From positions 25,836 to 89,835 of the IMG/VR virus record IMGVR_UViG_3300032309_002614: a stretch of DNA of 64,000 nt; one strand, written 5' to 3'. The notes below the pieces were generated by a model, which was given only the letters and a program-made list of their open reading frames with translations, had not been told where the DNA came from and did no database searches. The position numbers were made by a program, and so were the translations under genes. Below, in pieces: positions 185-53,061 of this stretch (its first letter is position 1; each line of letters begins with the position of its first letter). The DNA comes from a virus (lineage: Duplodnaviria > Caudoviricetes).

Positions 185-212
185 TTGACATCTTGAGTTT
201 CTCTGTTACTCT
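185..212 (+). promoter_or_regulatory. Sigma70-type promoter, near-leaderless transcript
   Basis: TTGACA(185-190)-N16-TACTCT(207-212); ATG at 221. Confidence 0.7.
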
Positions 213-220
213 TAATACAG

Positions 221-541
221 ATGAATAAAAGAGAGCTATTAAATAAGCTTTTGCATATTCCTAAAAAAGTTCATCCGTCATTCTGGGGTAAACAATTCAG
301 AATATTAAACTCTCTTCTCAAAAAGTTTCCAGATATGAAATTCTGGGAACAGGTTGTAGTTATTAGAGTTGATTGCCTCACTTTATATGCTGGAGAAGAT
401 GCCAATGGAATAGCTGATAAATATAAGAAATATATTTTTCAACCTGAATTAAAGAATATAGAATTTCAGCTTGGTGAAAAAGCTGGACAAGACTATAATA
501 TTATGGTAAAACCTAAAACAATTAAAGACTTTCTAAAATGA
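221..541 (+). CDS. Hypothetical protein
   Basis: 106-aa ORF after the promoter, overlaps recA start (ATGA). Confidence 0.8.
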   Translation: MNKRELLNKLLHIPKKVHPSFWGKQFRILNSLLKKFPDMKFWEQVVVIRVDCLTLYAGEDANGIADKYKKYIFQPELKNIEFQLGEKAGQDYNIMVKPKTIKDFLK

Positions 542-1713
542 GTAAAAAGAATAATAATAAAGAAGAAGTAGATAGTGGTAAAATTACTACATCTCAAGAT
601 CAGCTAAAAAGCTTCTTGAAGCAAAATAAAGAATCTCATTATAATTACGAACCAACTATTGATTACAAGGTTTCAAGCGGCAGTCTCCTGCTTGATTACT
701 TTCTAGCTGGTGGTATCGGTACTGGATTGCATCGATTCTGTGGAATCAATGAAGGAGGAAAAACGAGTTGCGCTCTTCAATTCATGAAGAACTTCTTAGA
801 TCAACCTAAGAAGCGCAAAGGATTTTATATCAAAGCTGAAGGTCGATTGAGCAATGAAATGATCACTCGCTCTGGAGTTAAGTTTGTATTCAATGAAGAA
901 GAATGGGTCGAAGGTACATGTTTTGTTTTTGAGTCAAATATTCATGAAACGGTATTTGATGCAATGCGAGAACTAGTTGGTAAGAATGATGAGAAAATGA
1001 TGTATTTCTTTCTCCTAGATTCTGTCGATGGTTTAATTAGAAAGGGTGATCTTGATAAAACCTTCGAAGAGTCGCAAAAGGTTGCTGGCGGTGCAGTAAT
1101 CGCAGCAGATCTTATGAAGCGCATGTCTATCGCACTTCAAAAGCGTGGACATATTGCAGTATTTATTTCTCAAGTTCGTGCTGATATCAAACTTGATCCA
1201 TACAGCAAGGCTCCAATTCGTCAAACGACTGCTACAGGTGGTAACGCTTTGCTACATTTTGCTAACTGGATTTTTGAATTTGATGCTCGTTTTAAGGGTG
1301 ATCTAATTCTTGAAGATCCTAACGCTTCTTACGATGAGCAAAAGAATCCATATCTTGGACACTTTGTGAAGATCGTTGTTAAGAAGTCTCCAAATGAAAG
1401 AACTAACTGCACTATTCGATATCCAATTAAATATGGAAGAAAGAATGGTACTTCTAATTGGGTAGAAAAGGAAATCTTTGATTTTCTAACTATGTGGGAA
1501 ATCGCTATTAAGAAGGGAGCTTGGATTAGCTTTGATGAAGAGTTTCTTAATACTTTAAAAGAAGCTGGCTTTACAGAATTTCCTGCTCAAATTCAAGGAG
1601 CAGCTAAGTTTGAACAAATTGTCAACGACAATGAAAAACTTAAGAATTTCTTCTTTAAGTATATCAGCGAAAACCTACTAAATTTTGGCGATGGAATTTC
1701 TATCTCTGAGTAA
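538..1713 (+). CDS. recA: RecA/UvsX-like recombinase
   Basis: SSGSLLLDYFLAGG, Walker A GINEGGKT, Walker B LLDSVD, FISQVR, TATGGNALLHFA. Confidence 0.9.
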   Translation: MSKKNNNKEEVDSGKITTSQDQLKSFLKQNKESHYNYEPTIDYKVSSGSLLLDYFLAGGIGTGLHRFCGINEGGKTSCALQFMKNFLDQPKKRKGFYIKAEGRLSNEMITRSGVKFVFNEEEWVEGTCFVFESNIHETVFDAMRELVGKNDEKMMYFFLLDSVDGLIRKGDLDKTFEESQKVAGGAVIAADLMKRMSIALQKRGHIAVFISQVRADIKLDPYSKAPIRQTTATGGNALLHFANWIFEFDARFKGDLILEDPNASYDEQKNPYLGHFVKIVVKKSPNERTNCTIRYPIKYGRKNGTSNWVEKEIFDFLTMWEIAIKKGAWISFDEEFLNTLKEAGFTEFPAQIQGAAKFEQIVNDNEKLKNFFFKYISENLLNFGDGISISE

Positions 1714-2098
1714 TAAGAAAAGACGTTGCAAAAATGCTCGCAATTATTTAATTAATTGGAGCATGGATAGCCGTAGTAAATTTCAAACTGAAGCTAAAAA
1801 ATTTTTACGAAACTATTGGCAGCATAATATTGTGTTTGAAGAGTTTCCAATTGTTGGCACTCGTCTTACCTTGGATTTTTATAACGCTAATAAAAAAATA
1901 GCTATAGAAGTTCAAGGTAGGCAACACACTGGTTTTGTTAAATTCTTCCATGAAAATAGAATGAATTTTCTTCATCAATTAAATAGAGACAAGAAAAAAG
2001 AACGTTTCTGCGAACTTAATGAAATTACACTTGTAACTATTTTCGAAAACGATACAATAAATAAAGATCTTTTCGAAAGTCAAGGTGTAATATTATAA
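1685..2098 (+). CDS. Vsr/DUF559-like PD-(D/E)xK endonuclease
   Basis: LTLDFYNANKKIAIEVQGRQH; D..K...C....I.L..I C-terminal pattern. Confidence 0.7.
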   Translation: MAMEFLSLSNKKRRCKNARNYLINWSMDSRSKFQTEAKKFLRNYWQHNIVFEEFPIVGTRLTLDFYNANKKIAIEVQGRQHTGFVKFFHENRMNFLHQLNRDKKKERFCELNEITLVTIFENDTINKDLFESQGVIL

Positions 2099-2099
2099 T

Positions 2100-2375: not shown

Positions 2376-3890
2376 ATGATTTATTCGTATGATTTAGAGA
2401 CTCAGTTGCTCGCTGGACTGATTAAATATCCAGAAAGATACGCAGATGTCGCATCTTTCGTGACAGAAAAAGACTTCTGGAGTGAAAGCTCTAAGATAAA
2501 TAGAACTATTTTTTGTGTGCTTCGTCAAGCAATTGACAATGGTGAAAAAATTGATGACGTAGTAATATCTCAAAGAGTAAAGAATTTTGGGGTAACTTTT
2601 GAGGACAATATCAATCCATCTGATTATATTGAATCTTTGTCTCTCAAGAAGTTGTCCCCAGAATCTATTATAAGCGTTGCTAAAGAGTTAAAGAAGTACA
2701 CTATTCGTCGCGAAATTGCGATGTGTGGTGCAGAGATCAACAAGAAGATGAAGTCTATATCTCCATCTTCTGATTATAATGTTATCATTGAATGCGCTGA
2801 TAAGCTTTATAATGATCAAATTAATCTCTATGAAACTGGTGCAGATCAACCAGAAAATATTTTTGATGAAATGGAAGCTCTTGTTGAAGAGCGTGGAAAT
2901 AATCCAGTCACTGAATTTGGATTCGCTGGACCGCATCCAAAAACTCAAGACATGTACGGTTCTCTTTTGAGACCGGGAAATATCACTGTTATCGTCGCTC
3001 GTTCAGGTGTTGGTAAGACTCAATTTTGTTTGGATTTTACTACAAAAGTATCTGAACAATATGAAGTACCAGTTCTTCATTTCGATAACGGTGAAATGAG
3101 CAAAGAGGAACTTATTTTTAGACAATGTGCTGCAATGTCCAAAGTTCCAATGTATCTATTAGAAAGCGGAAATTGGCGTAAGGCTGGCGCAGAAATTGTA
3201 GATAATGTTAGATCAGTATGGAAAACTATTAATAAACGATATAAGCATCTATATTATTATAATGTAGGCGGCATGAGCGTTGATGCACAAATCAGCGTTC
3301 TTAAAAGATTTTACTATTCCAAGATAGGTCGCGGAAATCCAATGATTTTTAGCTTTGATTATATCAAAGCTACAAGTGAAAATGGAGGTAATAAAACCGA
3401 ATGGCAGCTTGTTGGAGAGATGGTTGATAAATATAAGCGTTGTATTCAAAGAGATATCGTAAGCGATAAAGGCCCATGTATATCAATGATGACATCAGTG
3501 CAATCTAATCGTGCTGGTATCGTCACCAATAAAAATTCATCAAATATCACTGATGATGAAAGTATCGTTTCTCTTTCTGATCGTATTACTCAATTTGTTT
3601 CTCACTTGTTTATTTTGCGACAAAAAACTTCTGATGAATTGCAGAATGAAGTTGGTTTTGGAACACACAAATTCATTAATATAAAAGCTCGCCATCTTGG
3701 TAAAGATATAGCTGGAGCAATTAATCCAGTAAAACTTGCAGATGGAACTCTTAAAAAGAATTTTGTTAATCTTGAAATTGCTAATTTTTGTGTCTCAGAA
3801 AAGGGTGATTATAGAGATATCGTTGATGCTCTTGGTACAAACGCAACTGTAATTAAAGATAACGATGACGACGTACCTAACCTCGATTAA
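2376..3890 (+). CDS. dnaB: DnaB-like replicative helicase
   Basis: N-terminal E..LLAGL helical domain, Walker A ARSGVGKT, GEMS, FDYIK, SVQSNR, IKARH. Confidence 0.9.
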   Translation: MIYSYDLETQLLAGLIKYPERYADVASFVTEKDFWSESSKINRTIFCVLRQAIDNGEKIDDVVISQRVKNFGVTFEDNINPSDYIESLSLKKLSPESIISVAKELKKYTIRREIAMCGAEINKKMKSISPSSDYNVIIECADKLYNDQINLYETGADQPENIFDEMEALVEERGNNPVTEFGFAGPHPKTQDMYGSLLRPGNITVIVARSGVGKTQFCLDFTTKVSEQYEVPVLHFDNGEMSKEELIFRQCAAMSKVPMYLLESGNWRKAGAEIVDNVRSVWKTINKRYKHLYYYNVGGMSVDAQISVLKRFYYSKIGRGNPMIFSFDYIKATSENGGNKTEWQLVGEMVDKYKRCIQRDIVSDKGPCISMMTSVQSNRAGIVTNKNSSNITDDESIVSLSDRITQFVSHLFILRQKTSDELQNEVGFGTHKFINIKARHLGKDIAGAINPVKLADGTLKKNFVNLEIANFCVSEKGDYRDIVDALGTNATVIKDNDDDVPNLD

Positions 3891-6007: not shown

Positions 6008-6775
6008 TTGGACGACATGCTACCATTGTTTAAATCTCATTTCAGTATAGGAAAATCTATACTGACTTTAGATGATCCAAAGAAGGTCACTGAAGGAGGA
6101 TCTGATAGTGTATTTAAGATCGCGAAAGACAACGGTCTTAAACAGGTTATATTAGTCGAAGACTCGTTGATTGGATTCTTTGAAGCGTACAAGCGCAGCA
6201 AAGAAATGGGTATTCAATTAATATTTGGCCTAAGACTTTCAATGAGAAACTCTGCTCTTCCAGAAGATGAAGGCAGTCAACATAAAGTAATTATATTTGC
6301 TAAGGATGATATTGGGTGCAAGTTACTCAATAAAATCTATTCAAAAGCCTTTTGCACCAATTCTGGATTTCTAAGCTATAGCGACTTGAAGGAGTTGTGG
6401 AACGAAACTTCTCTCAAGCTCGCTATTCCATTTTATGATTCATTTATTTATATAAATAATCTATCTTTTGGAAATGCTGTTCCTGATCTTTCTTTCACTA
6501 AAGCTACTTTGTTTTACGAAGATAACGCCTTAGCTTTAGATTATATTCTTCAAGAGAAGGTAAAAGAATTTTCTATCAATAACGAGATGCCAATGGTTAA
6601 AGTTCGCAGTATTTATTACAATAAGAAATCTGATGTCAAAGCTTTTATGGCATACAAGATAATTTGTAATCGATCTTTCGGCAAAGACCGTTCACTAGAA
6701 AAACCAGAGTTGCCTCATTTTTGCAGCGATAAATTTAGTTTCGAAGCTTGGAAGGAAGAAAATGCTACGATTTAA
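6008..6775 (+). CDS. PHP domain of DNA polymerase III alpha, as a stand-alone gene
   Basis: FKSHFSIGKS, F....K..G...IFGL, IIFAKDDIGCKLLNKI; start TTG 6008 or ATG 6017; promoter TTGACA(5980)-N16-TAGAAT. Confidence 0.8.
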   Translation: MDDMLPLFKSHFSIGKSILTLDDPKKVTEGGSDSVFKIAKDNGLKQVILVEDSLIGFFEAYKRSKEMGIQLIFGLRLSMRNSALPEDEGSQHKVIIFAKDDIGCKLLNKIYSKAFCTNSGFLSYSDLKELWNETSLKLAIPFYDSFIYINNLSFGNAVPDLSFTKATLFYEDNALALDYILQEKVKEFSINNEMPMVKVRSIYYNKKSDVKAFMAYKIICNRSFGKDRSLEKPELPHFCSDKFSFEAWKEENATI

Positions 6776-7391
6776 TAAAGAACAAAAGTATATTTGTTTC
6801 GATTTTGAAACCTGTCATCTAAATCTGCTTGATGATAGCAATAAGCCTTGGCAATTAAGTTATCTGATTGCTAAAGGCAGCAATATACTTAAAGAAGTAG
6901 ATAATCATATCTATTGGCCCGATCTTAAGCTCTCAGAAGGAGCAAAGATTGTGACTCATTTTGATGAACGTAAATACCATTCGTTAGCTGCCGATCCAAA
7001 AGAAGTTCTGGAGGCTTTTGAAGATTATATTTATAATGATGAGTATCTGATTATTGGACAAAATCTATTGGGCTTTGATGTGTATATTCATAATACATAT
7101 AGAAGACTGATGGGTAAGAAAAGCGACTTCTCTTATGTTAAGAGAATTATAGATACAAACTGTATCGCTAAAGCTATTAAAAAGAATCTCAAACCTCAAA
7201 GAGATTCTGATTTTACTTTTTGGCAGTATAGATTAAATGATTTTCGCGAGAAAGGTCTAAAGACAAGCATTAAAACTCAGTTGAAAGAATACAAGATTGA
7301 CTTCGATGAGAACATGCTTCACAATTCCATGTACGACGTTCAGATGAATTTTAAGATTTTTCAGAAGCAGCTTTGGCAAATTGAAATATGA
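6762..7391 (+). CDS. DEDDh 3'-5' exonuclease (DnaQ/epsilon-like proofreading subunit)
   Basis: DFET (Exo I), GQNLLGFD (Exo II), HNSMYD (Exo III). Confidence 0.85.
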   Translation: MLRFNKEQKYICFDFETCHLNLLDDSNKPWQLSYLIAKGSNILKEVDNHIYWPDLKLSEGAKIVTHFDERKYHSLAADPKEVLEAFEDYIYNDEYLIIGQNLLGFDVYIHNTYRRLMGKKSDFSYVKRIIDTNCIAKAIKKNLKPQRDSDFTFWQYRLNDFREKGLKTSIKTQLKEYKIDFDENMLHNSMYDVQMNFKIFQKQLWQIEI

Positions 7392-9148
7392 ATTTTTTAC
7401 AAGACATTAAAACTTATGATAACGCCATGCTTCCCGGCGTTCGATTGCCACAAATCTCCATCGAAAGTAAATATTACGATTTGTTGAGCATACCCACTTC
7501 TTCAGATAATTTTACATTTCTGAAGACTTTGTGTTGCAAGAGTTTAAATAACTTAGGATTAAATAATAATCAATATGTTGAGCGAATGGAGATGGAATTG
7601 GAAATCTTCAGAGAGCTTGATTTCGTTGATTATGTACTTCTCAACTGGGATATTCTTAATTACTGCCATGAAAATAATATTCCAACTGGTGCTGGTCGTG
7701 GTAGTGCTGCGGGTTCTTTGGTTCTATTTATTGTGGGTGTTACGAAAGTTGATCCCATAAAATACGAACTATTCTTTGAGCGTTTCGTTAGCCGTTCTCG
7801 CGCTAAGAAGATTATCAAAGATGATATTACTTATCTTGATGGTTCTCTTCTTCCTGACGTAGATAACGATATCAGCTATGATAGACGCGCAGAAGTAATT
7901 AAGTATATTGAGCAGAAACATCTTGGCAAAACATCGAAGATCTTAACTCTCAATACTCTTTCTAGTAAGCTTTGTATTAAAGAGTGCGGAAAGATTGTTG
8001 GCGCTTTATCAGAAACAGATGTTAATGAAGTCAGTGACAATATTCCTAAATTATTTGGACGGGTTTTTGATTTGGAAGAGGCTTACAAAGCTAATGATAA
8101 ATTTAAAGCTTGGGTTGATCAAAATAAATTCGTATTTGAAATAGCTAAGAAGATCGAAGGACTGAATAAGAATACTGGTGTTCATCCTTCTGGTATTGCT
8201 ATTTCTTATTATAAGATCGAAGAAGTTTGCCCAGTTCAAAAGACTTCTGATGGTGATTTAGTTAGCGGCTATGATATGAATTATGTAGCCGAACTAATGG
8301 TTAAGTTCGATGTTCTTGGCTTGAGAACTTTGACTGTAGTCAGCGAAGTTTGTAAAAGACTTAATATTGAAATGACTTCTATTGATCCAGAAGATCCTTT
8401 CATTTACGAAAGCTTTCAGAATCTTCGTACTCCACAAGGTCTATTCCAAATTGAAGCGGAAACCAACTTCAAGGTATGCCGTAAAGTTAAGCCCAAGTCT
8501 CTTGAACAGCTTAGTGCGGTAGTTGCTATTGCTCGTCCCGGTGCATTGGACTTCGCTGATCAGTATGCTACATATTCAGCTTCAGGAGTATTTCAGCTTG
8601 TTCACGATTTCTTTAAAGAAGAGCTTTCATATACTGGTGGCATTCCTCTTTATCAAGAGCAGTTGATGAAGATGGCTGTGCGTTTGGGATTCACTCTTGA
8701 TGAGTCAGAGCAGTTGCGACGTATCGTTGGTAAAAAGAAGGTTGATCAAATGCCAGCATGGCAAGGAAAAATTCGTCAGAAAGTTACAGAGCAGAATTTA
8801 GATATAGCAATTGGAGACGTATTATGGAAGGTGGCTGAAGACTCAGCGAATTATTCATTTAACAAATGTTTATTACCAGAAACTGTAGTTGAAAGCAAAG
8901 ATGGTCTAAAATGTTTAAGTGAGATTAAAAAAGGAGATTCTGTTTTAGCTTATGATGTAGAAAATAATATTGATCATTTTGTACAAGTTGTAGATATTCA
9001 TAAGAATGAAGTTGAAGTCTACGAAGTGGAAATGGAAGACGGAACAAAAATTTGCTGTTCTATGGATCATAAATTTCTATGTGGAGATAAAAAAATGCAT
9101 ACTCTCAGAGATATTATTTCTCAACGTTTAGAGATTATGTGTAAATAA
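7388..9148 (+). CDS. dnaE: DNA polymerase III alpha N-terminal part fused to N-intein (split intein N-half)
   Basis: GRGSAAGSL, FERF, PDVDND, HPSG, VKFDVLGL, YQEQLM, NYSFNK then CLLPET intein block A. Confidence 0.95.
   Translation: MNFLQDIKTYDNAMLPGVRLPQISIESKYYDLLSIPTSSDNFTFLKTLCCKSLNNLGLNNNQYVERMEMELEIFRELDFVDYVLLNWDILNYCHENNIPTGAGRGSAAGSLVLFIVGVTKVDPIKYELFFERFVSRSRAKKIIKDDITYLDGSLLPDVDNDISYDRRAEVIKYIEQKHLGKTSKILTLNTLSSKLCIKECGKIVGALSETDVNEVSDNIPKLFGRVFDLEEAYKANDKFKAWVDQNKFVFEIAKKIEGLNKNTGVHPSGIAISYYKIEEVCPVQKTSDGDLVSGYDMNYVAELMVKFDVLGLRTLTVVSEVCKRLNIEMTSIDPEDPFIYESFQNLRTPQGLFQIEAETNFKVCRKVKPKSLEQLSAVVAIARPGALDFADQYATYSASGVFQLVHDFFKEELSYTGGIPLYQEQLMKMAVRLGFTLDESEQLRRIVGKKKVDQMPAWQGKIRQKVTEQNLDIAIGDVLWKVAEDSANYSFNKCLLPETVVESKDGLKCLSEIKKGDSVLAYDVENNIDHFVQVVDIHKNEVEVYEVEMEDGTKICCSMDHKFLCGDKKMHTLRDIISQRLEIMCK
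8867..9145 (+). mobile_element. Split intein N-fragment (93 aa)
   Basis: Starts with Cys (CLLPETVV), block B CSMDHKF, ends at stop codon; no endonuclease domain. Confidence 0.9.
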
Positions 9149-9152
9149 TAGC

Positions 9153-10100
9153 ATGAGCGTTTTTAAAGATGAAGGTTTAAAAAAAATCATACCTATAGAT
9201 ATTTTTAATTATTGTATAATAGACAAAAAAACAAAAAAAGAAATTACAAATCTATTTCCTTCTAGGAATGAAGGTATTTATTATTTAAATAAATTTATAA
9301 ATTTTTTATCAAAATATCATAAAATTTCTATTCAAGAATATATTGAAAAATATTTTAATGAAAAATGGCCTATTTGTCCAATATCTAAAGAACCAGTTGG
9401 CTATAAAACCACAGGAATTGGACTTGTTCTTTCTAAGTTTAAAAGAGGCAAAGTAGACAAAAACAATAGCGTGGCTTTTAGAAAAGCTTGTGAAAAGTTT
9501 TCCCAAGAAAGACTTGGTAAAAACAATCCTATGTATGGTAAAAAAGCTTGGAATACTGGATTAAAAAAAGAGACTGATGAAAGAGTGGCTATAGTAGCAA
9601 AAAAAAGAACTGGTAAAAAAATGTCTCAAGATTCAAAAGATAAAATGAAAGAAGCTAGAGAAAGACATCCTTTAAAAGCTAGGCACACTACAAAACATTC
9701 GGAAGAATCAAAAGAAAAAATGAGAAAAGCCACCATTAATCGTTGGCAAATTGGTGAATTTTCATTCAAAATTACTTCTATAGAGAAAAAAGTAGATCAA
9801 TGGCTTAAAAATAACTGCGTTAACTACGTTTTTCAACACGGTATCGGCGGTTTTGTTGCCGATTTCGTTTGCTTAGATGAAAAAATTATAATAGAATGTC
9901 AAGGAGACTTCTTCCATTGCAATCCGTGTTTTGAAAAATATGCAGAACCAAAATACGATATACAAAAAAGAAATCTATATAGAGATAAAATAAAGAAACA
10001 GAAGTATAAAGATTTAGGATGGAAGTTGATAGAATTGTGGGAAAGCGACATTAACTCTGGAGAATTTAAAAACATTTTAAGATGCGAACTCAAAAAATAA
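9153..10100 (+). mobile_element. Free-standing homing endonuclease (NUMOD3-type repeats plus Vsr-like/EDxHD nuclease) between the split-intein halves
   Basis: GKNNPMYGKKAWN, HSEESKEKMR, ADFVCLDEKIIIECQGDFFHCNP, D..K.......GW.L..LWE. Confidence 0.85.
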
Positions 10101-10195
10101 TTTCGATTAAACCTTTAGGTTTAAAAAATACTTTAGATTTAGAAGTTAACCATTCAGATCATAATTTTTATGCTGAAGGCTTAGTTTCTTCGAAC
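10082..10195 (+). mobile_element. Split intein C-fragment (38 aa)
   Basis: MRTQKIISIK..., block F TLDLEVNHSDHNF, block G VSSN followed by Ser+1 (SHS). Confidence 0.9.
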
Positions 10196-11269
10196 TCTCA
10201 CTCTATCTCTTATGCTATTTTGGCTGCGTGGACTGCTTATCTAAAATTCAAGTATCCGCATGAATTTTTCTTGGCATTGCTTCAGTTGTCTAAATATGAG
10301 CCTGATTCACATCAAGAAATTAACAAGATTTCAAAAGAGCTAGTATATTTTGATATCAAACTTTTACCTCCTGATCTAGCAAAATCTGCTCTTGATTTTA
10401 AGATTGAAGATGGCAATATTCGTTTTGGATTAAATTCTATTAAAGGCGTTTCTGAAAAGACGTTACAAGCTCTTCAGAGTTTCAGAGAAACGAATACTCC
10501 AACAAAGTTTGATATTTTTATCGCCGCTAAACAAGCTGGTATTAATATCGGTCTACTTTCTTCTTTAATTCAAGCTGGAACTCTAAGTTCATATACTCAT
10601 AGACGATCACGCTTAGTTCTTGAGGTGCAAACTTTTAATATCTTAACTGATAAAGAAAAGAAGTTCGCTTGTAGTGTTGGGCCTAAATATGACTATGATA
10701 TTTTAACTATCGTAAGTGAATGCGCTTTCAAGGGTCAATCTCTTAATGAAAGCGGTAAACCTTTCATGAATGAAAAGCGAAAAATTACATTCAAGAAAAA
10801 GTACGATGAATACAAGAAAATCTATGAACAGAACAAAGATCATGAGAAGTTCGCGAACTGGGTTTTTGAAAATAGGCTCTTAGGTTATACTCCAACTATT
10901 CGACTAAAGACTATTTTTCAGCAATCTGAGTGTACGTTTACAGATACAATGGAATTTCAATCTGCTTTTAAAGAAGACAGAGTAAAGATGGTTGGAGTGA
11001 TAGATGATGTTTATAAGGGCAAAACTAAAAAGTCTAATTCTACATTCTATAGATTCCAATTGAAAGATGAAGTTGGCAGCGTAAGTGCGATGTTTTTAGA
11101 TGGTGGAAAACACCAAAGATTAACAGAGTATCTTGAAGACGGTCTTAAAATTCCAGATAAGGAAAGTATTGTAGTTTTCACTGGCAGAAAGGGTGACGAT
11201 GTGCTATGGATAGAGAACATCGGAATCTTGGACGACAAGATCTACATGAAGTTATCTGACATAGAATGA
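10082..11269 (+). CDS. dnaE: C-intein fused to DNA polymerase III alpha C-terminal part
   Basis: SHSISYA..AYLK, LLPPDL..S, IRFGLNSIKGV, E...LGY, C-terminal OB-fold-like region. Confidence 0.93.
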   Translation: MRTQKIISIKPLGLKNTLDLEVNHSDHNFYAEGLVSSNSHSISYAILAAWTAYLKFKYPHEFFLALLQLSKYEPDSHQEINKISKELVYFDIKLLPPDLAKSALDFKIEDGNIRFGLNSIKGVSEKTLQALQSFRETNTPTKFDIFIAAKQAGINIGLLSSLIQAGTLSSYTHRRSRLVLEVQTFNILTDKEKKFACSVGPKYDYDILTIVSECAFKGQSLNESGKPFMNEKRKITFKKKYDEYKKIYEQNKDHEKFANWVFENRLLGYTPTIRLKTIFQQSECTFTDTMEFQSAFKEDRVKMVGVIDDVYKGKTKKSNSTFYRFQLKDEVGSVSAMFLDGGKHQRLTEYLEDGLKIPDKESIVVFTGRKGDDVLWIENIGILDDKIYMKLSDIE

Positions 11270-13671
11270 AAAATTTAAATTTAACACCAAGAGCGCAAAA
11301 GCTAATCAAAGAAGCTTATAAAATAGCTGTAGATCTCAAGCATACAGAGATCACGCATCTTCATTTATTTATAAGTTTTTTGAATCTTAAGCAGAGTCAG
11401 ATAGAAGAAGCATTTGGAAATTTTGGCATAGATTCTTTAAAAATAAAAAACAGTGCTATAACATTTTTAAAAATCAACACTACAGCACAAAAGAAAGCGG
11501 TAACTAAACCTTTATTATCTGAAGGCATAAAGACTATTTTTAAATGCGCCAAAACTATATCTTCAAAATTTGATCATAAATATATTGGACTAGAACATGT
11601 ATTTTTAAGTTTATTTGAAGTTCCTAATCAAACTTTTGAACTTTACTTGATTGATTATAATTATGATTTTGTTAAAGTCGTGGACTATGTTGAGCAAAAG
11701 CTAGAAGATGATGATATGTTACCAAGCGTTGAGGAGGAAATAAACAGTCCTAATGAAGCGAAACAAACTTTTGATATAAAGAAGTATAAGGTTTTAAATA
11801 CTTATGCTAATAATCTTAATATACAAGTTGTTAATGGTAAAATAAATAATCTACATCTTAATAAAGAACTGATTCAAAAGATCTCAGAAGTTCTTTGTCG
11901 CAAAAATAAGAATAATCCACTTATTGTAGGCGAAGCTGGTGTTGGTAAAACAGCTTTAGTCGAATCATTAGCGCAAGCCATCGTTAAAGGTGAGGCTTCC
12001 GATCTGCTTAGTCTAAAGCAGATTTATAGCTTGGATATTCCAATGATGATTGCTGGTTGTAAATTTCGTGGTGAATTCGAAGAGAAGATTAAAAACCTTT
12101 TAAAAGAAATCACAGATGATCCATATATTGTTCTGTTTATAGATGAAATCCACACAATCATTGGTGCTGGAAATCCAGAAAATGGCAACGATGTTGCTAA
12201 TATTCTAAAGCCTTATTTAGCTAGAGGAGAAATTAGCTGCATTGGTGCTACTACTTTCGACGAATACAAGAAGACTATATCTGATGACCCAGCTTTATCT
12301 AGGCGTTTTCAGATTATTAAAATCGAAGAACCCACTAAAGAACAAACCTTTAATTTAATCAAGAATATTAAAGGTGGATATGAAAATTTTCATGTCATAG
12401 ATTTTTCTGATGATGTTATTCATTTTATCATTAATAGTGCTGAAAAGTATATTGAAGGAAGATTTCCTGACAAAGCTTTAGATATTATTGATCAAGTAGG
12501 AGCTAAAGTTAAATTAAAGAATTTTATAAAGTCTCCTGAAATGCTTAAAATAGAAAAGAAGCTCAGTAAATTTGTTGATTCTAACAAGCAAATACGAGAT
12601 AAGAAAAAGATTACTTCTTTAGAAGATCTTCTTATCGAGTATGAAGAGTCTACAAAAAAGATGATTGCTAATTGGCGCAATAACAGATATCAAGTTACAA
12701 ATTCAGACATATTAGAAGTCGTCTCTGATAAAACCAATATTCCGGTTAATGATTTAAAATTACAAGACTTTGATAAAGTCAAGTTACTTAAAACCAGACT
12801 AAAAGAACAAGTACTTGGTCAAGACAATCAAATAGAACATATATATAAATGTTTAATAAGAGCGAAAGCTGGTTTTCGAAATCCAAATAAGCCTATTTGT
12901 TCAATGCTTTATGCTGGGCCGACAGGCGTTGGAAAAACAATGACTGCAAAAATAATTGCAGAAACTATATTTATAAATAAGAATAATTTTATAACAATTG
13001 ACATGTCTGAATACACAGACAAGACCGCCGTAAATAAACTAGTTGGATCTAGTCCCGGTTATATTGGATTTGATAAAGGTGGAGTATTAACTGAAAAGGT
13101 AAGAAAGAATCCATATTCTTTAATTCTTTTCGATGAAATTCAAAAAGCCGATCAAGATGTTTTGTACTCTTTGTTACAAATCCTTGAAGAAGGAAAGATA
13201 ACAGACTCTTCTGGAAAGACGGTTGATTTCTCTAACACTATGATTGTTATGACAACTAATATCGGTGCTGAAGTCGTCAATCATTCTGCTATAGGATTTG
13301 GAAAGCAGAAAGCTGGCAAATCTGATGTCCTTTCTTCTATCAAAAAGCATTTTCCACCTGATTTGTTAAACCGTATTGATGAAGTAGTTATTTTTGAGAG
13401 TCTTGAGCAAGAACAAATTAAATTAATCATTGATAAAGAATTACAATTATTTAAAACAGATCTAGCAGATAGAAATGTCAATATTAAATATTCTCCAGAA
13501 ATAACTAACTTTATTTTTGATAAAATACAATTTAATAACTTTGGCGCACGACAAGTTATTAAAACTATTCAACGAGAACTGCAAACACAAGTTGCAGAAA
13601 AAATGCTTGATTCTGATGAAAAATTAAATTTGGAAATTTCAGTTAAAGACAACAATATTTGTGTAATTTAA
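11266..13671 (+). CDS. ClpA/ClpC-family double AAA+ ATPase (Hsp100)
   Basis: Clp N-domain, [40 protein letters not shown] loop. Confidence 0.92.
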
Positions 13672-15032: not shown

Positions 15033-15046
15033 GTGTAATTAAATAT

Positions 15047-20937: not shown

Positions 20938-21132
20938 ATGCAAGAAGTAGATAATATAATAAATAAACTAATCGAATCAATCAAAACAGTTGATTCTAAT
21001 AAAGCTATTCCTCATTTAGTAAAAGATTTAGATAAACATGTTCAAGAAGCTTATGCTGAACTCTATAAATATAGAGAACAAAAATTAGTGTATAAAACTG
21101 TTAATGACGACAAACGAGGTCACTGCTGTTAA
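20938..21132 (+). CDS. Hypothetical protein
   Basis: 64-aa ORF. Confidence 0.6.
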   Translation: MQEVDNIINKLIESIKTVDSNKAIPHLVKDLDKHVQEAYAELYKYREQKLVYKTVNDDKRGHCC

Positions 21133-21473: not shown

Positions 21474-21684
21474 TTCTTCAAATATACATAGAGCAGTTAA
21501 TATAACTACTCTTAGTGAAAAAGATATTAAAAAACATTCGCTAGTAAAAACTGGTGACTTATTCGAAAAAGATGATTATCTATTGTTATATGATGATCAA
21601 TATGTAAAAATTGGCGAAGGAAATAAGCTTCTTAAACATAAAATCATTAAAGAAAATACCGTATATAGAAAGAAGCAAGTGTAA
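21463..21684 (+). CDS. Hypothetical protein
   Basis: GTG start, 73 aa. Confidence 0.6.
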   Translation: MSDNSSNIHRAVNITTLSEKDIKKHSLVKTGDLFEKDDYLLLYDDQYVKIGEGNKLLKHKIIKENTVYRKKQV

Positions 21685-23003: not shown

Positions 23004-23048
23004 TTATTTTATATTTTCTTTTTTGCAATTATTTGTGTAATTATAGAT

Positions 23049-29599: not shown

Positions 29600-29703
29600 A
29601 CACTACCCGAGAAATCGGAGGATGAAAAATCAATTTTTAGCGGCAATCGCTAAATAGGTGCGTTTACGCATCGTCCCTTTTTCGAGTAGTGTCGGAAAGG
29701 GGA
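29600..29703 (+). ncRNA. Structured, pseudoknot-capable RNA leader upstream of an HNH gene
   Basis: CCGA-GAAA-TCGG, TTTAGCG/CGCTAAA, GGTGCG/CGCATC, 12-bp TCCCTTTTTCGA/TCGGAAAGGGGA whose loop GTAGTG complements upstream CACTAC. Confidence 0.6.
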
Positions 29704-29709
29704 TTTTTT

Positions 29710-32551: not shown

Positions 32552-32588
32552 GTTAGCATAGTCGAAGAATAAAGGTGTAAAAAATATT

Positions 32589-37150: not shown

Positions 37151-37194
37151 ATTTAAATAATTTACTATTGTAAAAACATTGTGTATTATATTTT

Positions 37195-38762: not shown

Positions 38763-39433
38763 TTAATGATAAAAATGACAATAAAGTTCAGTTGCTAGGC
38801 TTCTATGGCGATGACAAAGTTCACGCTTGTTCAGCTTGGACTTCCACAAGCCGAGATTTAAATGAAGATAAAATTAATAGAATTCCTAAACTCCTTAAGA
38901 TGCTCGCTGATGCGGGGCATCATACTCCCTTTGAAAAGTCTAGCATTCACTTCTTAGTCGATACTGATATTGCTAGTCACATTCATCTTCTTAAGCATCG
39001 AGTCGGTGTATCTATTAATGGAGAGTCTGCTAGGTACAAGGAGATAAAGGAAGATAAGTATTTGATTCCTAGTGATTGGGGAGATATTGAATCTACCTTT
39101 GATAAAGAAGGAGTCCAAAATAGTAAATGGACTACAATACTTGAAGATTATACTCACCTTGGCAATACTCTTTATCATCAATGCGTTAAAGATCTTGAAC
39201 CAACTTTAGGTCGCAAGCGAGCTAAGGAATCTGCTCGATTCTTTAAGGCTTATAATTCTCAAATTCAAGCTGACGTTATGTTTAATTGGCGCAGTTTTTA
39301 TCACTTCCTTGAGCTTCGCAACAAGCCTGACGCTCAGAAAGAAATCCGAGAGATTGCTGCTGAGATGTTAAATCTGGTAAAGAATATTGAAGGCAACCCT
39401 TTCCAACATACAATTGCCGCATTTGAGCTATGA
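38759..39433 (+). CDS. thyX: Flavin-dependent thymidylate synthase
   Basis: GHHTPFE, HLLKHR...S...SARY, N.RS..HFLELR....AQ.EIR. Confidence 0.93.
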   Translation: MINDKNDNKVQLLGFYGDDKVHACSAWTSTSRDLNEDKINRIPKLLKMLADAGHHTPFEKSSIHFLVDTDIASHIHLLKHRVGVSINGESARYKEIKEDKYLIPSDWGDIESTFDKEGVQNSKWTTILEDYTHLGNTLYHQCVKDLEPTLGRKRAKESARFFKAYNSQIQADVMFNWRSFYHFLELRNKPDAQKEIREIAAEMLNLVKNIEGNPFQHTIAAFEL

Positions 39434-39825
39434 GTTATTATTTATTTTTAGATGATATTCGTTCGATTTCTGATGTCAGAAAATATTGTAATTTACCGAA
39501 TATAAATGACGAAGAGTGGACGGTTGTACGAAGCTACAAGGAATTTGTAGATTTAATCATATTGAGAGGAGTTCCTCAATTTGTATCTTTAGATCATGAT
39601 CTTGGAATTTCTTCATATTCAGAATGTTCTAATTCTGTTAAAAATGGTTATATAAACTACGAAAATATATGTGAAATGACTGGTTATGATGCCGCTAAAT
39701 GGTTGGTCGAGTATTGTATTCATAATAAATTAAAATTTCCACGTTATCAAGTCCACTCTATGAACCCCGTGGGAAAATGTAATATAGAATCTTATATAGA
39801 GTCATATTTTAGCAGTTATGCCTAG
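39430..39825 (+). CDS. Cyclic-phosphate-processing receiver-like domain protein
   Basis: LFLDD.R, VRSY.EF, SLDHDLG, TGYD.AKWL, HSMNPVG. Confidence 0.75.
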   Translation: MSYYLFLDDIRSISDVRKYCNLPNINDEEWTVVRSYKEFVDLIILRGVPQFVSLDHDLGISSYSECSNSVKNGYINYENICEMTGYDAAKWLVEYCIHNKLKFPRYQVHSMNPVGKCNIESYIESYFSSYA

Positions 39826-40527
39826 AAGATGTTTCCATAAATGACCATTACGAATACTTGATATGTTTGAGGTAGACATGTTAAATTTTTTTGACAATTC
39901 TACTCCACTGCCTCTATATTTTGGATAATTTCTAATATATGAAATATCTTCTTCAGATAGATTTGTGTGAGCTTCTCTTATGGCGCGTTTTGTCTCTTCA
40001 GTGTGAGTTTTTCCAAAAAAATTATTCTTTTCTCCAAGTTTAGCGGCGCGTAATTTTTTTATAGTTTCTTCACTCGGAGACTTACCAAACATAGGATGCG
40101 ATGATCCGGTTTGAGCTTTACTCATTTTGATTTTAGTTTCAATTGAATGTGGAACTCCTTTGTTAGGAGCGACTCTGCCTTTTAATTTTTTACTCAATTT
40201 TTTTCTAACGTCATCAGTAAATTCAACAGATCCAGCGATGAATGAAAGATTATAACATTTATCTTGTTCATTTTTTGCTGCATCCAAAAAACTTTGTTCA
40301 ACATCAATCAGTTCAGATCTATCAGATGTGCATTCTTTTATTATGATAAATTCAAAATTGCTCTCTCCATATTTGTTCCACGCATGTTGAAGTTTTAAAT
40401 TTTTATGAATTTGTTTATTAAGAGTCCGTCTATGCTGCGTCCATCTTATAAAAATATTTTTAGAACTTCCAACATAATACTTTCCATTTAATTTATTAAT
40501 TATTTTATATATTCCGCTTATTTTCAT
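39802..40527 (-). mobile_element. GIY-YIG homing endonuclease with NUMOD3 repeats
   Basis: SGIYKI.N..NGKYYVGSS, R..QH, EQ, YN; HSIETKIKMS, HTEETK. Confidence 0.92.
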
Positions 40528-40648: not shown

Positions 40649-40762
40649 ATAATAAAATACACTAAATTTAAATAAAAGTGATAAAAAAGTCATAAAAATA
40701 TATTGACAAATGCAGTATATAGTCTACGATATTAGTTGTATTAATTCTTATAATAAAGCACT

Positions 40763-43515: not shown

Positions 43516-43518
43516 TTT

Positions 43519-43541
43519 ATGGGAATGGTTCCCATTCCCAT
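43519..43541. repeat. Inverted repeat/hairpin before the LAGLIDADG gene
   Basis: ATGGGAATGG-TTC-CCATTCCCAT. Confidence 0.8.
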
Positions 43542-43562
43542 ATTTTAGTGTAATCATTTATA

Positions 43563-45713: not shown

Positions 45714-45803
45714 ATCTTTATATACACATGATAAAATATTTTTCGTTATTTTCATTTATTTTTTCACAAGTTCGCGTATGATATGTACAATTAGAATATA
45801 AGT

Positions 45804-45968: not shown

Positions 45969-46159
45969 ATAGTGTAATATATAGTAGCGCAAATATAAAC
46001 TGTTCAAACTTTGATCTATTGATTAAAAAACAGCAAGACCCGAAGCGCATCAAGCTTGTGTTTGATATCGGGTCTTTTTTCGTCCCCACCCCTCACTTTT
46101 CTCAAAAAATCTTGCGAAGCCCCTTGACAGCACCTAAAAACCTGATAAAGTGGTCGCGT

Positions 46160-46411: not shown

Positions 46412-47340
46412 TGAACTACTTCGCTGAACTTGTTGGGCAAGAAGAAGTCAAACGCAAGCTTTCATTTTATTTGGAAGCTCATGATAAGACCGAACTTGTA
46501 CCGTTTTTGAACTTCGTTGGCGCAAAAGGTTTAGGCAAGACTGCATTTGTTCGCGAATTTGCCAAGAATATTTACAATACCACCGGAGTCAATAAGCCAC
46601 TACTTGAGCTAAATAGCTCTAGTATTAAATCGGGGAATCAGTTTTTCGAACAAGTTTTTCTGCCCCATATTCAAGATCAAGAAATTATTTGTTTCTTTGA
46701 TGAAGCGCATTGTCTGCCAAGAGACTTTACTTACGCATTACTTTCTATTCTCTCTACAGAGAAAGATCATGTAATTGATTATAATGCTGGCAAAGCAAAT
46801 TATATCTTCAATTTCAAGAAGCATCATTTTATATTCGCGACAACTGAATCAGATAAGCTATTTATTCCGTTGCGTGATCGATTGACGACGATTGAATTTG
46901 CAGATTATAATACAAACGAATTGAAGGAAATTTTTCAAAAAGCTCTACCAAATATTGAGTTTGATGAAGAAGCGTTGTCAATGTTGTCTGAAACTTCCCG
47001 AGGCAACGCGAGATCTTGTGTGCTTCGCGCCAAAGAAGTCAAGCTTTACGCTGATCGATACGAGATCACGCGATTTACCAAAGAAGACGCTGAGAAGTTG
47101 TTTTATATTCTTGATATTCTTCCTTACGGTTTGAATAGAATTGAGTGGCAGATACTAAATATTTTGCGTAAAGAAGGTAGCTGTACTCTTTCTATGCTCG
47201 CTGCAAAAACTGGTTTGTCAAGAACCGCGATTCAAAGGGATTTTGAATTGTATCTTATTCGTAAAGGGTTTATTAGTATTGATAATGTTAGATATATTAC
47301 GAGTAATGGATGCAAAGTATTAGAAGGTGTGAAGAAATAG
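46411..47340 (+). CDS. ruvB: RuvB-like Holliday junction branch-migration ATPase
   Basis: GQE.VK, GAKGLGKT, FFDEAH, ATTE...L..PLRDR, SRGNAR, E.YLIRKGFI. Confidence 0.85.
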   Translation: MNYFAELVGQEEVKRKLSFYLEAHDKTELVPFLNFVGAKGLGKTAFVREFAKNIYNTTGVNKPLLELNSSSIKSGNQFFEQVFLPHIQDQEIICFFDEAHCLPRDFTYALLSILSTEKDHVIDYNAGKANYIFNFKKHHFIFATTESDKLFIPLRDRLTTIEFADYNTNELKEIFQKALPNIEFDEEALSMLSETSRGNARSCVLRAKEVKLYADRYEITRFTKEDAEKLFYILDILPYGLNRIEWQILNILRKEGSCTLSMLAAKTGLSRTAIQRDFELYLIRKGFISIDNVRYITSNGCKVLEGVKK

Positions 47341-47362
47341 TGTAAGATATTATACATTTGAT

Positions 47363-47437
47363 GCCGGAGTAGCTCAATAGTAGAGCAATACTTTTGTAAA
47401 GTAAAGGTTGCAGGTGCAAATCCTGTCTTCGGCTCCA
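47363..47437 (+). tRNA. tRNA-Thr(UGU)
   Basis: GCCGGAG/CTTCGGC, loop TTTGTAA, GCAGG-TGCAAAT-CCTGT, CCA. Confidence 0.9.
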
Positions 47438-48012: not shown

Positions 48013-48086
48013 GGGATTGAAGCTTTAAAGTGAAGCAATAAACTTTTAATTTATTGAAGAGGGAGCGTTACCCTCCAGTCCTACCA
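48013..48086 (+). tRNA. tRNA-Lys(UUU), atypical D/T loops
   Basis: GGGATTG/CAGTCCT, ATAAA-CTTTTAA-TTTAT, GAGGG-AGCGTTA-CCCTC, CCA. Confidence 0.88.
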
Positions 48087-49911: not shown

Positions 49912-49914
49912 CTT

Positions 49915-50245
49915 TTGCAGCAATGAGGGCAGTCGTCACTAAGACGTAGTTTGAGGTACTGGAAATAATCCGGTATATTAGACAACTGAGCGACCTGATC
50001 TGCGAATACATACAGTGCGCCCAAGTGATAATGTTTCTAGTCGCTTTACACTGTGAAAAAAATGGGTATTAATTTTGACCATTAGTGTATAGAATTATAG
50101 CACACTACGCAATAGGAGAGACTGAAGTTGGCGAGACAGACATTTGGAAAAAAAGTACATATATGTTCGAAAGTAAATGTATTGATTTTCCATAATATAT
50201 GGAACAATAGTGAAATCCTCGTATATTCGCAAGTCATGGTCATCC
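49915..50245 (+). ncRNA. Unassigned structured non-coding RNA candidate
   Basis: No sense ORF; long-range stem 49992-50013/50221-50241, pseudoknot, several hairpins. Confidence 0.6.
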
Positions 50246-50541: not shown

Positions 50542-50548
50542 TTTTTAT

Positions 50549-51652
50549 TTATATTTGATAGTCTAAAATTTGTTTCGCTTCGAATTTAGCCCAATATCCT
50601 CTATCGGGCTTAATTATTTTATATTTTTTGCACCATTTAGCTATAGCTACGTCTGAAACTCCAAGTTTTTTAGATAACTGTACAGCCGACATACTCCAAA
50701 CAAGTTCATGCAGTTCAGATTTCGATGGGCGAGCAACTTTTCTTCTCTTAAATCTCATACAAGGCATACAAAGTTTAGCGATTTTAGTTTTTTGCTGGCC
50801 GCACTGACAAAAACTGTAGATTGGATCAATAATTTTTTTCTCTATTTTTTGTGGTTTTTCTTTTTGAATTGAAATTTTCTTTCTATCTTTTATACAGCTT
50901 TTACATTTTATGTTTTGATAGTGTTGAAATTCAATACCGCAGACTGCACAGTTTTTTTTGTTTTTTTCTAACTTGTTCTTTATATACTCCTCATAATTAA
51001 ACTCAATTTTATTCTCTACCGCTGAGATTTGATTTATTAAATTAAGTATATATTCTTCATTGAAACATAGCGAATAATGTATTTCATAAAGCTTATATCC
51101 AAGACATTGTATATAATCATGTCGATCTTGATAATACTTTTTTAATTTACCATCTCTTTCGTAATGTTGATTGCCATTTATTTCAAAACCAATCATTTTT
51201 TCTGGAAAAACGATATCAATTGAATAATTTCGGTCACAATTTGGGGTAAATTCTTCTATAAAATTAAAATTATTTTCGCGCAAAATCTTTTTAAAATTCT
51301 CGCACGGTTCAGATTTAAATTTATCTTTTGATTTCCAAGGGTGTTTATCAGGATTATCGCGCAAAAATTGCTTTCTTTTTTCTGATAAAAGTTTTTTTGT
51401 ATTTTCAGACAGCTTGTTCAAGCCTAAATCACGATAGCATTTTTGGCAATGATTATTGATATTCCTATCGTCTATTGAGATATTACAATTCTGACAATAT
51501 TTAGAAGGCTTTTTATGGCGACTCCATCTTGCTACAGAACTCGCTTTACAAGAACATTTTTGAGAACAATAATGATGTTTTGAAGTAGGTATTCGGTAAT
51601 TTTCTTTTAAAAATTCTTTACTACATAATGAGCAGTTAACTAAAGTTTTCAT
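50549..51652 (-). mobile_element. Zn-ribbon plus Vsr/DUF559-like nuclease plus C-terminal HTH (homing endonuclease-like)
   Basis: CSLC, YCSQKC, YSIDIVF....GFEINGNQHY, S...LSKKLGVSDVAIAKWC. Confidence 0.8.
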
Positions 51653-51719
51653 ACGATTCGAACCTACAATATATTATACACATAAAATAACAAATTGCAA
51701 GTTCGAATCTATATTTATC

Positions 51720-52613
51720 TTAATACATCTTAAATCCACTCAAGTCTACTTCATTAACTTTATATCCACTACTTAATGAAGATATTGTATTATTTACTTC
51801 ACTTATATAACTAGGAATATTTGTGCCTAAACCGGCCATAGCTCCAAGTGTCATATACCAGCCGCCGATCAATACAACTTCATTATTAATAATAGTAGAA
51901 ACAATATTGCCGCTATCTCCAACTATCAAAGGTTCAAAATATTGCGCTCTGTTAGAGTCTTTGGAAATATTTATTAATGTATTTGTTGACCCGTAAGTAG
52001 TATTGAGAAGACCATTTTCCCCTATTAATGCTTTTCTTTCTTGATCTGAATATAAAATAGGAAAATTAATCTCCTTATTAAGATATTTAAGATAATTGGT
52101 TGGTAATGCTTTGTATATCTTTAATGAAGCATCAGCTTCTCTATCAAGTTCACCAATTAATATATCGGTATTGGCGACTTGTTTTGTTTTAATAATCTTA
52201 TATTCGTAAGAATTATTATTTTTATCTACAAAATAAATAGTTGCTGGTAAAGATGGGTATGGAACATGATTAGCTAATAAAACATGTTTTTTAGTTATCA
52301 ATGTACCACCGCCCACCCCACCTAAACCCCAAATACCACATGAAGTGCCAGTCAAATCTAAATCTTTAGCCCAGCAATTAATATTTCTTGTCCATTTTAT
52401 AGGAGTCATAGTGAAGCTAGATATGAGATTTTTTTCTTTTCTATCCTTAATTAAATTATCGAAGTTAGAAGAGATATGAGAAAATAGATCTAATTTATTT
52501 GTGGTTATAGATTTTGGTTTGGGCGCATCATTTAAAGCTTCGTTCTTAGCTTCTGCGATTATTTTTTGGATTAAAATTGTGTGATCTGCGAGTAGTTGTT
52601 CTAGGGTTGTCAT
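51720..52613 (-). CDS. Trypsin-like serine protease
   Basis: GTLITKKHVLLANH (His), DILIG (Asp), GDSG (Ser); likely start ATG 52613. Confidence 0.8.
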   Translation of the reverse strand: MTTLEQLLADHTILIQKIIAEAKNEALNDAPKPKSITTNKLDLFSHISSNFDNLIKDRKEKNLISSFTMTPIKWTRNINCWAKDLDLTGTSCGIWGLGGVGGGTLITKKHVLLANHVPYPSLPATIYFVDKNNNSYEYKIIKTKQVANTDILIGELDREADASLKIYKALPTNYLKYLNKEINFPILYSDQERKALIGENGLLNTTYGSTNTLINISKDSNRAQYFEPLIVGDSGNIVSTIINNEVVLIGGWYMTLGAMAGLGTNIPSYISEVNNTISSLSSGYKVNEVDLSGFKMY

Positions 52614-52683
52614 ACATATTTTCTTACACCGAAAAATGCCGCTTGACAAGGGGAAATTTTTCTGCCATCATGTTCGCACGATT

Positions 52684-53061
52684 ATGAGTGATGCAAATTT
52701 TTTCGAATTAAAGGGTCAGATCGTTAAAGAAATAACTGGTTTAGAAAAAAACAGCCCAGAAGTGCATATTGTAACCAATCAAACAACTTATAAATTATAT
52801 CATCATCAAGATTGCTGCGAAAGCGTTTTAGTCGAAAATGTTATTGGAGACGAGAAAGATATTCTTAATGAAGAAATAATCTTTGCTGAAGAAGATGCTG
52901 GCGCAAATGCTCCTGATTGGTATACTGAATACGATAGACTTTACAGCCACACTTGGACTAAGTATGTTTTAAAAACTAAAAACGCCAGTTTAGAGTTTTG
53001 GTTTCTTGGAGAATCAAATGGTTATTATAGCGAAGATGTCACAATTAAAAAAATAATATGA
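52684..53061 (+). CDS. Hypothetical phage protein (HHQDCCESV)
   Basis: ATG 52684 after TTGACA; W.GESNGYYS. Confidence 0.75.
   Translation: MSDANFFELKGQIVKEITGLEKNSPEVHIVTNQTTYKLYHHQDCCESVLVENVIGDEKDILNEEIIFAEEDAGANAPDWYTEYDRLYSHTWTKYVLKTKNASLEFWFLGESNGYYSEDVTIKKII

Follow-up and report, generated by a model that had tools for sequence, protein, structure and literature searches.

What is the function of the hexamer GTGTAW, which stands repeatedly 8–10 nt before start codons in the DNA of a large uncultured phage, and which protein reads it? The stretch analysed (the window) comprises 64,000 nt of IMG/VR record IMGVR_UViG_3300032309_002614 (Duplodnaviria; Caudoviricetes; positions 25,836 to 89,835). 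A preliminary description of the window had proposed this box as a candidate phage late promoter producing leaderless messages, recognised by a phage-encoded sigma factor or RNA polymerase. In our analysis the box is probably the core of a single-element promoter of the −10 type, without a −35 element, which serves non-early genes, is read by a phage sigma factor, and gives rise to leaderless or nearly leaderless messages.

Positional lock of the box

The hexamer itself is not enriched in the window (49 copies of GTGTAW, 48.1 expected), and it is its position relative to start codons that departs from expectation. GTGTAW-N8-ATG is observed 10 times against 0.66 ± 0.80 expected (no more than 4 in any of 100 order-2 Markov simulations), and with spacers of 8 to 10 nt the count is 15 against 2.28 (maximum 6, also in 100 such simulations). 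In an unbiased scan of all 1024 5-mers at 25 offsets (0–24) before every ATG, GTGTA at offset 9 is the top signal, with 11 occurrences where 1.21 are expected (p = 6.6e-8); it surpasses the next signal (p = 6.9e-5) a thousand-fold and is the sole strong one. Behind the 8-nt spacer, ATG occurs more often than any other triplet (10 of 49 sites), and the box is strict, as few one-mismatch variants are locked to gene starts. The positional enrichment is confirmed in this way against simulated sequence within the 64-kb window, and all coordinates of the preliminary description (the 8-, 9- and 10-nt sites and three non-coding sites) were found correct on rechecking. GTGTAW is a real and strongly supported cis-element.

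A locked box precedes about 14 of the 124 open reading frames (ORFs), usually an ORF that comes first behind a gap, terminator or inserted cassette. The early region of small ORFs at 53–64 kb has no locked box except for one likely chance match on the wrong strand (GTGTAW at 54986, minus strand), and its units carry TTGACA-type promoters.

Sites in the window

On the plus strand, a spacing of 8 nt is found for GTGTAA at 9139–9144 (before ATG 9153 of the HNH homing endonuclease gene between the DnaE halves, overlapping the last codons of the upstream DnaE piece), 15033–15038 (ATG 15047, 75-aa ORF), 21679–21684 (ATG 21693, virion structural protein phrog_1645), 23035–23040 (ATG 23049, 319-aa ORF), 24046–24051 (ATG 24060, 73-aa ORF) and 32575–32580 (ATG 32589, rIIB-like), and for GTGTAT at 37181–37186 (ATG 37195, 147-aa ORF). 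The same spacing is observed on the minus strand for GTGTAT at 40657–40662 (ATG 40648), which heads a small ORF and the GIY-YIG endonuclease gene (39802–40527, minus strand), and at 45722–45727 (ATG 45713 of a minus-strand ORF). Immediately 5' of the rIIB box lies a TTGACT-N16-TAGCAT promoter, so that two promoters are arranged in tandem. Slightly longer spacers, all on the plus strand, are found for GTGTAA at 2085–2090 (9 nt before ATG 2100, 86-aa ORF), 43548–43553 (9 nt before ATG 43563, LAGLIDADG endonuclease) and 13661–13666 (10 nt before ATG 13677, 67-aa ORF), and for GTGTAT at 21088–21093 (10 nt before ATG 21104, DUF1289, 67 aa). The box at 43548 directly follows the T-run of an 11-bp terminator hairpin (hairpin 43518–43542, whole arrangement 43518–43553).

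Three plus-strand boxes are followed by no ORF at this distance. GTGTAT at 29579–29584 and GTGTAA at 45972–45977 have no start codon at 8–10 nt and show T-A at N8/+1; a terminator-like hairpin (29673–29704) is present ~95–125 nt past the former. GTGTAA at 47340–47345 is located 17 nt before the mature tRNA-Thr (47363–47437). Besides the minus-strand match at 54986, three further sites were added to those of the preliminary description: GTGTAA at 52624–52629 (minus strand), 6 and 10 nt before the ATGs at 52617 and 52613 (ORF 51720–52613, minus strand); GTGTAT at 51676–51681 (minus strand), a candidate with a short leader, 23 nt before ATG 51652 of a 367-aa ORF; and GTGTAT at 50085–50090 (plus strand), a candidate only, in the stable-RNA cluster with T-A at N8/+1 and no ORF. 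The box revises the ORF starts at 13677, 40648, 45713 and 52613/52617.

Conservation in related phages

At orthologous sites in the related loci L001, L002 and L021 the box and its spacing are kept, while the letters of the spacer drift. The sites at 23035 and 24046 are kept in L001 and L002, as is the one at 15033, with a different spacer sequence, and that at 21679 is kept in all three. The site at 13661, with 10 nt in the window, has an orthologue in L001 with a spacing of 8 nt. In a more distant relative, the 85-kb contig G001 (68% complete, with about a dozen genes in common with the window), the box is found 8 times at N8 and 4 times at N9, before an endolysin-like gene, PhoH, a weak portal match and giant ORFs. 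Spacings of 20–24 nt also recur in relatives.

The lock extends to the surroundings of distant homologues of the sigma-like protein described below. In the flanks of homologues 41–50% identical to it (1.16 Mb, non-redundant), the N8 peak reaches 23 and 27 against a background of ~3–4. Control contigs (935 kb) gave N8 = 2; they belong to phages of similar GC, mostly unrelated, which have only the horizontally mobile phrog_1645 in common with the window. This protein is found also in T4-like cyanophages and in HMO-2011, and the contigs retrieved with it served as the negative control.

Proposed promoter architecture

The box precedes a tRNA gene and non-coding stretches as well as ORFs, and therefore acts on DNA or in transcription, not in translation; for the copy at 47340, ahead of tRNA-Thr, a translation signal is impossible. 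Its location after the terminator at 43548, the missing −35 element and the conserved spacing agree with this, and the view of the box as a transcription signal is supported. In the alignments of 64 and 53 non-redundant sites the information content is limited to GTGTAW and an A/T-rich spacer, and no −35-like element is conserved (≤0.4 bit at any upstream position). There is also no Shine-Dalgarno (SD) signal in the window, where SD-like 4-mers stand upstream of 10.5% of the ORFs against a background of 8.6%. The window shows two features of leaderless-mRNA promoters, a constant short interval between element and start codon and the lack of SD.

Host-type promoters (TTGACA/T, 16–17 nt, TAnnnT) are frequent in the window, and about ten of them end 6–9 nt before an ATG. 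An example is TTGACT-N16-TAATAT at 24296–24323 (plus strand), which abuts the ATGs at 24327 and 24333; others start at 185, 2338, 5980, 25092, 27723, 30322, 43250, 46124 and 54257, and the ORFs behind promoters of this type include those at 221, 2376, 6017, 25126, 30359 (rIIA), 43285 and 54291. Judged from these distances, early genes too look leaderless or nearly so. With 6–9 nt to the ATG in the host-type class and 8–10 nt in the box class, both would leave little or no leader.

A canonical extended −10 element (TGnTATAAT) is ruled out for the box, in which TG abuts TA without the 1-nt gap and position −7 is mostly A. When the box is read as GTG + TAWNNN, the ATG is found 5 nt past the hexamer, 1–4 nt nearer than in the host-type class. 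The short distance to the ATG, the A at −7 and the ungapped TG argue for a recognition mode different from that of the host-type promoters.

In the orthologues of 24296–24327 (L001:15091 and L002:13556), the promoter reads TTGACT-N13-GTGTAA. Here GTGTAA overlaps the sigma-70 −10 hexamer TAAAAT (16-nt spacing), and the promoter is possibly dual-class.

A sigma-70-family protein as candidate reader

The candidate reader of the box is a 201-aa protein (family A2 hereafter), which was recognised only via its homology to a protein of G003, a rearranged relative with patches of 66–95% nucleotide identity to the window. The G003 protein (203 aa) passes the Pfam Sigma70_r2 threshold (24.4–26.2 bits, cut-off 24), and its homologue is the 201-aa ORF of locus L251 (33% identity, E = 8e-22) on IMGVR_UViG_3300034082_002867, a contig that also carries orthologues of the UvsX (91%) and phrog_1645 (96%) proteins of the window. 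By collinearity the sigma ORF is located ~15–16 kb upstream of the first base of the window, on the minus strand. Four further contigs, with UvsX 90–96% identical to that of the window, carry the sigma at 91–100% identity. Searches of Pfam, PHROGs and PDB sequences with the window and the 19 kb upstream of L001 gave no direct sigma match.

The AlphaFold2 model of the 201-aa protein (predicted local distance difference test, pLDDT, 80.6) consists of two helical domains and a disordered linker (98–121). The top 50 Foldseek matches in the PDB are all sigma factors (sigma32, AlgU, WhiG, SigH, SigW), with TMt = 0.78 for the sigmaE region 2 entry 2map. With the A2 profile, 52 matches were obtained among PDB sequences; all are sigma factors, region 2 is the part that aligns, and the best E is 5e-5. 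Two characteristics of the sigma-70 family, a detectable region 2 and the two-domain fold of sigma2 and sigma4, are present. The family counts 436 proteins in a large protein collection, some of them named "specialized sigma subunit" by the Joint Genome Institute (JGI), and it matches 325 viral stretches; in the phage collection, tblastn gave no match for A2, for the second sigma-like family described below (A1), or for the tail-tube protein of this lineage. One sigma homologue is named from a metagenome-assembled genome (MAG) of Crocinitomicaceae.

The sigma gene is the third in an operon headed by TTGACA-N16-TATAGT-N6-ATG, as one would expect of an early protein that turns on genes of later classes. 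In the mechanism that we propose, early operons would be transcribed by the host sigma-70 holoenzyme from TTGACA-N16/17-TAnnnT promoters, and one of them, ~15 kb upstream in the closest long relatives, would provide the 201-aa sigma-70-family protein. Bound to the host core RNA polymerase, this sigma would recognise GTGTAW and direct transcription to start ~8 nt past the box, at the A of the AUG or 1–2 nt before it. Since the genome is without SD and the start would fall at or near the AUG, the messages are proposed to be leaderless or nearly so, and translated independently of SD.

Several observations weigh against this assignment. The sigma gene is seen in relatives at 90–96% identity and not within the window, and the L251 ORF taken alone remains below Pfam significance. 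The protein keeps a region-4-like C-terminal helix-turn-helix though no −35 element is conserved. As to the initiator, T at −1 is not significantly above the genome norm (p = 0.07), and among 24 tRNA genes checked in related loci the box is found upstream only of the window's own tRNA. Finally, G001 uses the box, and its 85 kb contain the sigma-like A1 and no A2 homologue, so that the assignment of sigma to box is not one-to-one.

If the phage-sigma promoter is correct, a six-base rule would annotate the non-early units and start codons in hundreds of uncultured phage genomes that are without a cultured relative, and the 201-aa sigma with its one-box promoter would be a clean pair for in vitro work. 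It would also make available many naturally leaderless messages from phages whose hosts are apparently mesophilic and Gram-negative; leaderless programmes have so far been documented mainly in Thermus phages and Deinococcus-Thermus cells. A broader interpretation, to which we give somewhat less than an even chance, is that a widespread clade of uncultured aquatic phages (contigs up to 184 kb, hundreds of IMG/VR contigs) runs an SD-free programme, in which early and box promoters alike start on the AUG and the box is both the promoter and the sole determinant of the translation start. Selection would then maintain the 8-nt spacing even between phages whose sigmas are only ~41% identical.

Gene class served by the box

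Structural genes do use the box, as it stands before tail-tube and tail-fibre-like genes of the lineage. In lineage contigs, ~2–9 kb past the sigma gene, GTGTAA-N8-ATG precedes the gene of a 367-aa protein, the model of which (predicted template-modelling score, pTM, 0.80) resembles, in Foldseek, major tail-tube proteins of the tandem-domain kind (8xan, 1.3e-10; P74-26; T5 pb6), and the box persists at 8–10 nt in orthologues as little as 38% identical. The box is also found at N8 before a 1674-aa ORF with a C-terminus of the tail-fibre type. Protein-coding targets in the window are three homing endonuclease units, rIIB (with its tandem host-type promoter), the virion gene and small ORFs; a tRNA and non-coding stretches are preceded by the box as well. 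The original name late suits the structural genes of the lineage and is too narrow for rIIB, the endonucleases and the RNA genes of the window; judged by its targets, it is probably better called non-early (middle plus late). Of the two kinds of reader first suggested, the sigma factor has its counterpart in the sigma-70-family gene of the lineage. A gp55-like protein was not found in PHROG and Pfam scans of ~60 ORFs, nor was a multisubunit or T7-like RNA polymerase among the annotated ORFs.

Alternative readers of the box

It is unlikely that the box is read by the host primary sigma holoenzyme as an unusual extended −10 element (GTG + TAWNNN), perhaps after a small phage protein has disabled −35 recognition, with the phage sigma having another job. 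Recognition of the −35 element is disabled by gp39 in Thermus phage P23-45 and by AsiA in T4. The resemblance of GTG-TAWNNN to TG-extended −10 elements speaks for host recognition, as do the promoter of the outer membrane protein gene in L001 and L002 (TTGACT-N16-TAAAAT, with GTG directly before the hexamer) and the middle/late promoters of P23-45, which fall in the class of extended −10 promoters and are resistant to gp39 (PMC3950348). In the box, however, the 1-nt gap that usually separates TG from the hexamer is missing, most sites have A instead of T at position −7, and the TAWNNN register brings the ATG to 5 nt, against 6–9 nt for host-type promoters. The box is, moreover, confined to sigma-bearing phage lineages, and control contigs of similar GC are without it.

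A different phage factor, either A1 or an unrecognised phage RNA polymerase comparable to those of AR9 and phiKZ, is an improbable reader; in its favour, G001 uses the box and has A1 and no A2 in its 85 kb. A1 is a highly conserved family of sigma-like proteins, found in 347 viral stretches and represented in G001 by a 237-aa protein (L081:1393–2106), whose gene adjoins PhoH. It has invariant cysteines between a region-2-like part and a C-terminal helix-turn-helix, and the flanks of its homologues give the highest N8 count (32). The short box with an initiator recalls the layout of AR9 late promoters (PMC5312081), and a tubulin/PhuZ-like gene is present at 13884–15032. The Sigma70_r2 match of A1 is, however, marginal (22.5 bits, cut-off 24), and the annotated ORFs include no RNA polymerase of the multisubunit or T7-like type. 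Neither the window nor the available parts of its close relatives L001, L002 and L181–L257 (together ~19 kb upstream and the window) contain a recognised A1. All contigs being incomplete, this absence is weak evidence either way, and the choice of A2 over A1 as the reader is tentative.

In loci of the A1 lineage (for instance L102, L105 and L109), a repeated, partly palindromic A/T-rich element, aaagttaaagttaaacttt..., is located directly 5' of a GTGTAT box. It fronts one conserved gene, the product of which starts with MAKRK, and may be an operator or a terminator.

A signal in RNA, replacing SD in translation initiation or acting in processing at a fixed distance from the AUG, would account for the exact spacing, the absence of SD and the boxes at 9139, 13661 and 21679, which are within the 3' end of an upstream ORF without a terminator, but it is highly improbable given the boxes before a tRNA and before non-coding stretches without a start codon, the presence of the box at only ~14 of 124 ORFs, the apparent lack of complementarity to the 16S 3' end beyond UAA, and the recurrent 20–24-nt spacings in relatives, which fit a promoter with a short leader.

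Comparison with known systems

For the proposed promoter, read by a phage sigma factor, the nearest described system is that of phiEco32, in which the early genes depend on host sigma-70 and the middle and late genes on the phage sigma gp36 (PMC12276001, PMC8948821, PMC4331800). A single element, tAATGTAtA, is read by gp36, with AATGTA centred at −11.5 and the start 6–9 bp from the element (PMC12276001, PMC8948821). As in phiEco32, one short element without a −35 consensus is found here, with a TGTA core in A/T context (tAATGTAtA and wGTGTAWa, respectively), and the same division is predicted between early promoters for host sigma-70 and a divergent phage-encoded sigma for middle and late genes. 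A start 6–9 bp past the element would here coincide with the AUG or precede it by 1 nt. An alignment of the phiEco32 geometry on ATGTA/GTGTA would place +1 one base ahead of the ATG; if transcription began instead at the A of this codon, the hexamer would span −14 to −9, with its centre at −11.5 as in phiEco32.

The two systems differ in several respects. At its first base pair the core has G here and A in phiEco32, and a fixed distance ties the element to the start codon, leaving no leader or SD, whereas phiEco32 is not described as leaderless in the three papers cited (PMC12276001, PMC8948821, PMC4331800). The sigma keeps a region-4-like C-terminal domain, which gp36 is said to lack, and the kinship detected between the two is only at the level of the sigma-70 family, since no gp36 chain is present among the PDB matches of the A2 profile (E ≤ 10) or the Foldseek matches listed. 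No homologue of gp79 was identified here, and the phage is much larger than phiEco32, with a T5-like tail tube.

In Deinococcus-Thermus, leaderless genes have a −10 element 6–7 bp before the ORF (PMC12340547). The box shares with these genes a −10-type element at a fixed short distance, the absence of SD and a spacing tied to the ORF, and the host-type promoters of the window have the same layout (6–9 nt). The Deinococcus-Thermus element is, however, a canonical TANNNT served by the housekeeping sigma, whereas the box is non-canonical, is confined to a phage lineage and probably has a phage sigma as its reader. The Thermus phage phiYS40 also has middle and late promoters of the extended −10 kind, and many of its middle and late transcripts are reportedly leaderless. 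The middle/late promoters of P23-45 are of the extended −10 class without a −35 element and function with gp39 (PMC3950348); non-early promoters without −35 and a TG-containing extension of a −10-like element are common to both systems. In P23-45 the reader is host sigma-A, whereas here TG is ungapped, the T at −7 is missing and a phage sigma is available.

The late promoters of T4 (TATAAATA, read with gp55), AR9 (AACA-N6-TA/G) and phiKZ (TATG), the latter two read by phage non-virion RNA polymerases (nvRNAP; PMC5312081), resemble the box in having one short element at about −10, no −35 element, and late genes and homing endonucleases among their targets. Sequence and register differ from those of the box in all three, and gp55, gp33 and phage RNA polymerases were not detected in the present analysis. 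The T4 gp55 late promoter itself is ruled out by its different consensus and register. Leaders in AR9 measure 26–491 nt (PMC5312081); in contrast to the long leaders of AR9 and phiKZ, none or nearly none is predicted here.

Genome context

The window (33% GC, nearly all coding, plus strand) contains the replication and nucleotide-metabolism section of a large uncultured phage, and no nucleotide match to cultured phages was found in the phage collection. The products encoded include a UvsX-like recombinase (538–1713), DnaB (2376–3890), a primase and an exonuclease, and a DnaE-type polymerase in several ORFs (6008–11269), split around the HNH endonuclease gene (9153–10100), which lies between two DnaE pieces. 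A ClpB-like ATPase, glycosyltransferases, a dUTPase, ThyX and a clamp-loader subunit are also encoded, together with the virion protein phrog_1645 (21693–23003), rIIA and rIIB (30359–33698), the GIY-YIG endonuclease (39802–40527, minus strand) and the LAGLIDADG endonuclease (start 43563, plus strand). Eight tRNA genes are present, seven detected by ARAGORN and one (48013–48083) by Rfam; six of them are clustered at 47.3–50.6 kb. A run of small ORFs occupies 53–64 kb.

The tubulin/TubZ-like protein (13884–15032) matches Pfam Tubulin (3e-12) and a TubZ-like C-terminal domain (1e-4), and occurs in the same phage as a DnaE/DnaB replisome. The phrog_1645 protein of the window shares 63–65% identity with proteins from T4-like cyanophages and from Puniceispirillum phage HMO-2011, which suggests that the gene has spread horizontally among very different phages. 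A 131-aa protein (39430–39825) contains a cREC_REC (cyclic-phosphate processing receiver) domain (E = 5e-21).

The outer membrane protein gene 24327–25037, a stand-alone gene that follows the TTGACT promoter, has copies 88–89% identical on small contigs (L266 and L267) that were assigned to the bins of a Gammaproteobacteria assembly and of a Flavobacterium MAG. Both contigs are probably phage fragments and hence give little information on the host. Within the small-ORF run, three tandem paralogous ORFs (123–141 aa, 59109–60309) have homologues in the distant relative G001, and a 117-aa ORF (63430–63783) matches two neighbouring places in the same contig.

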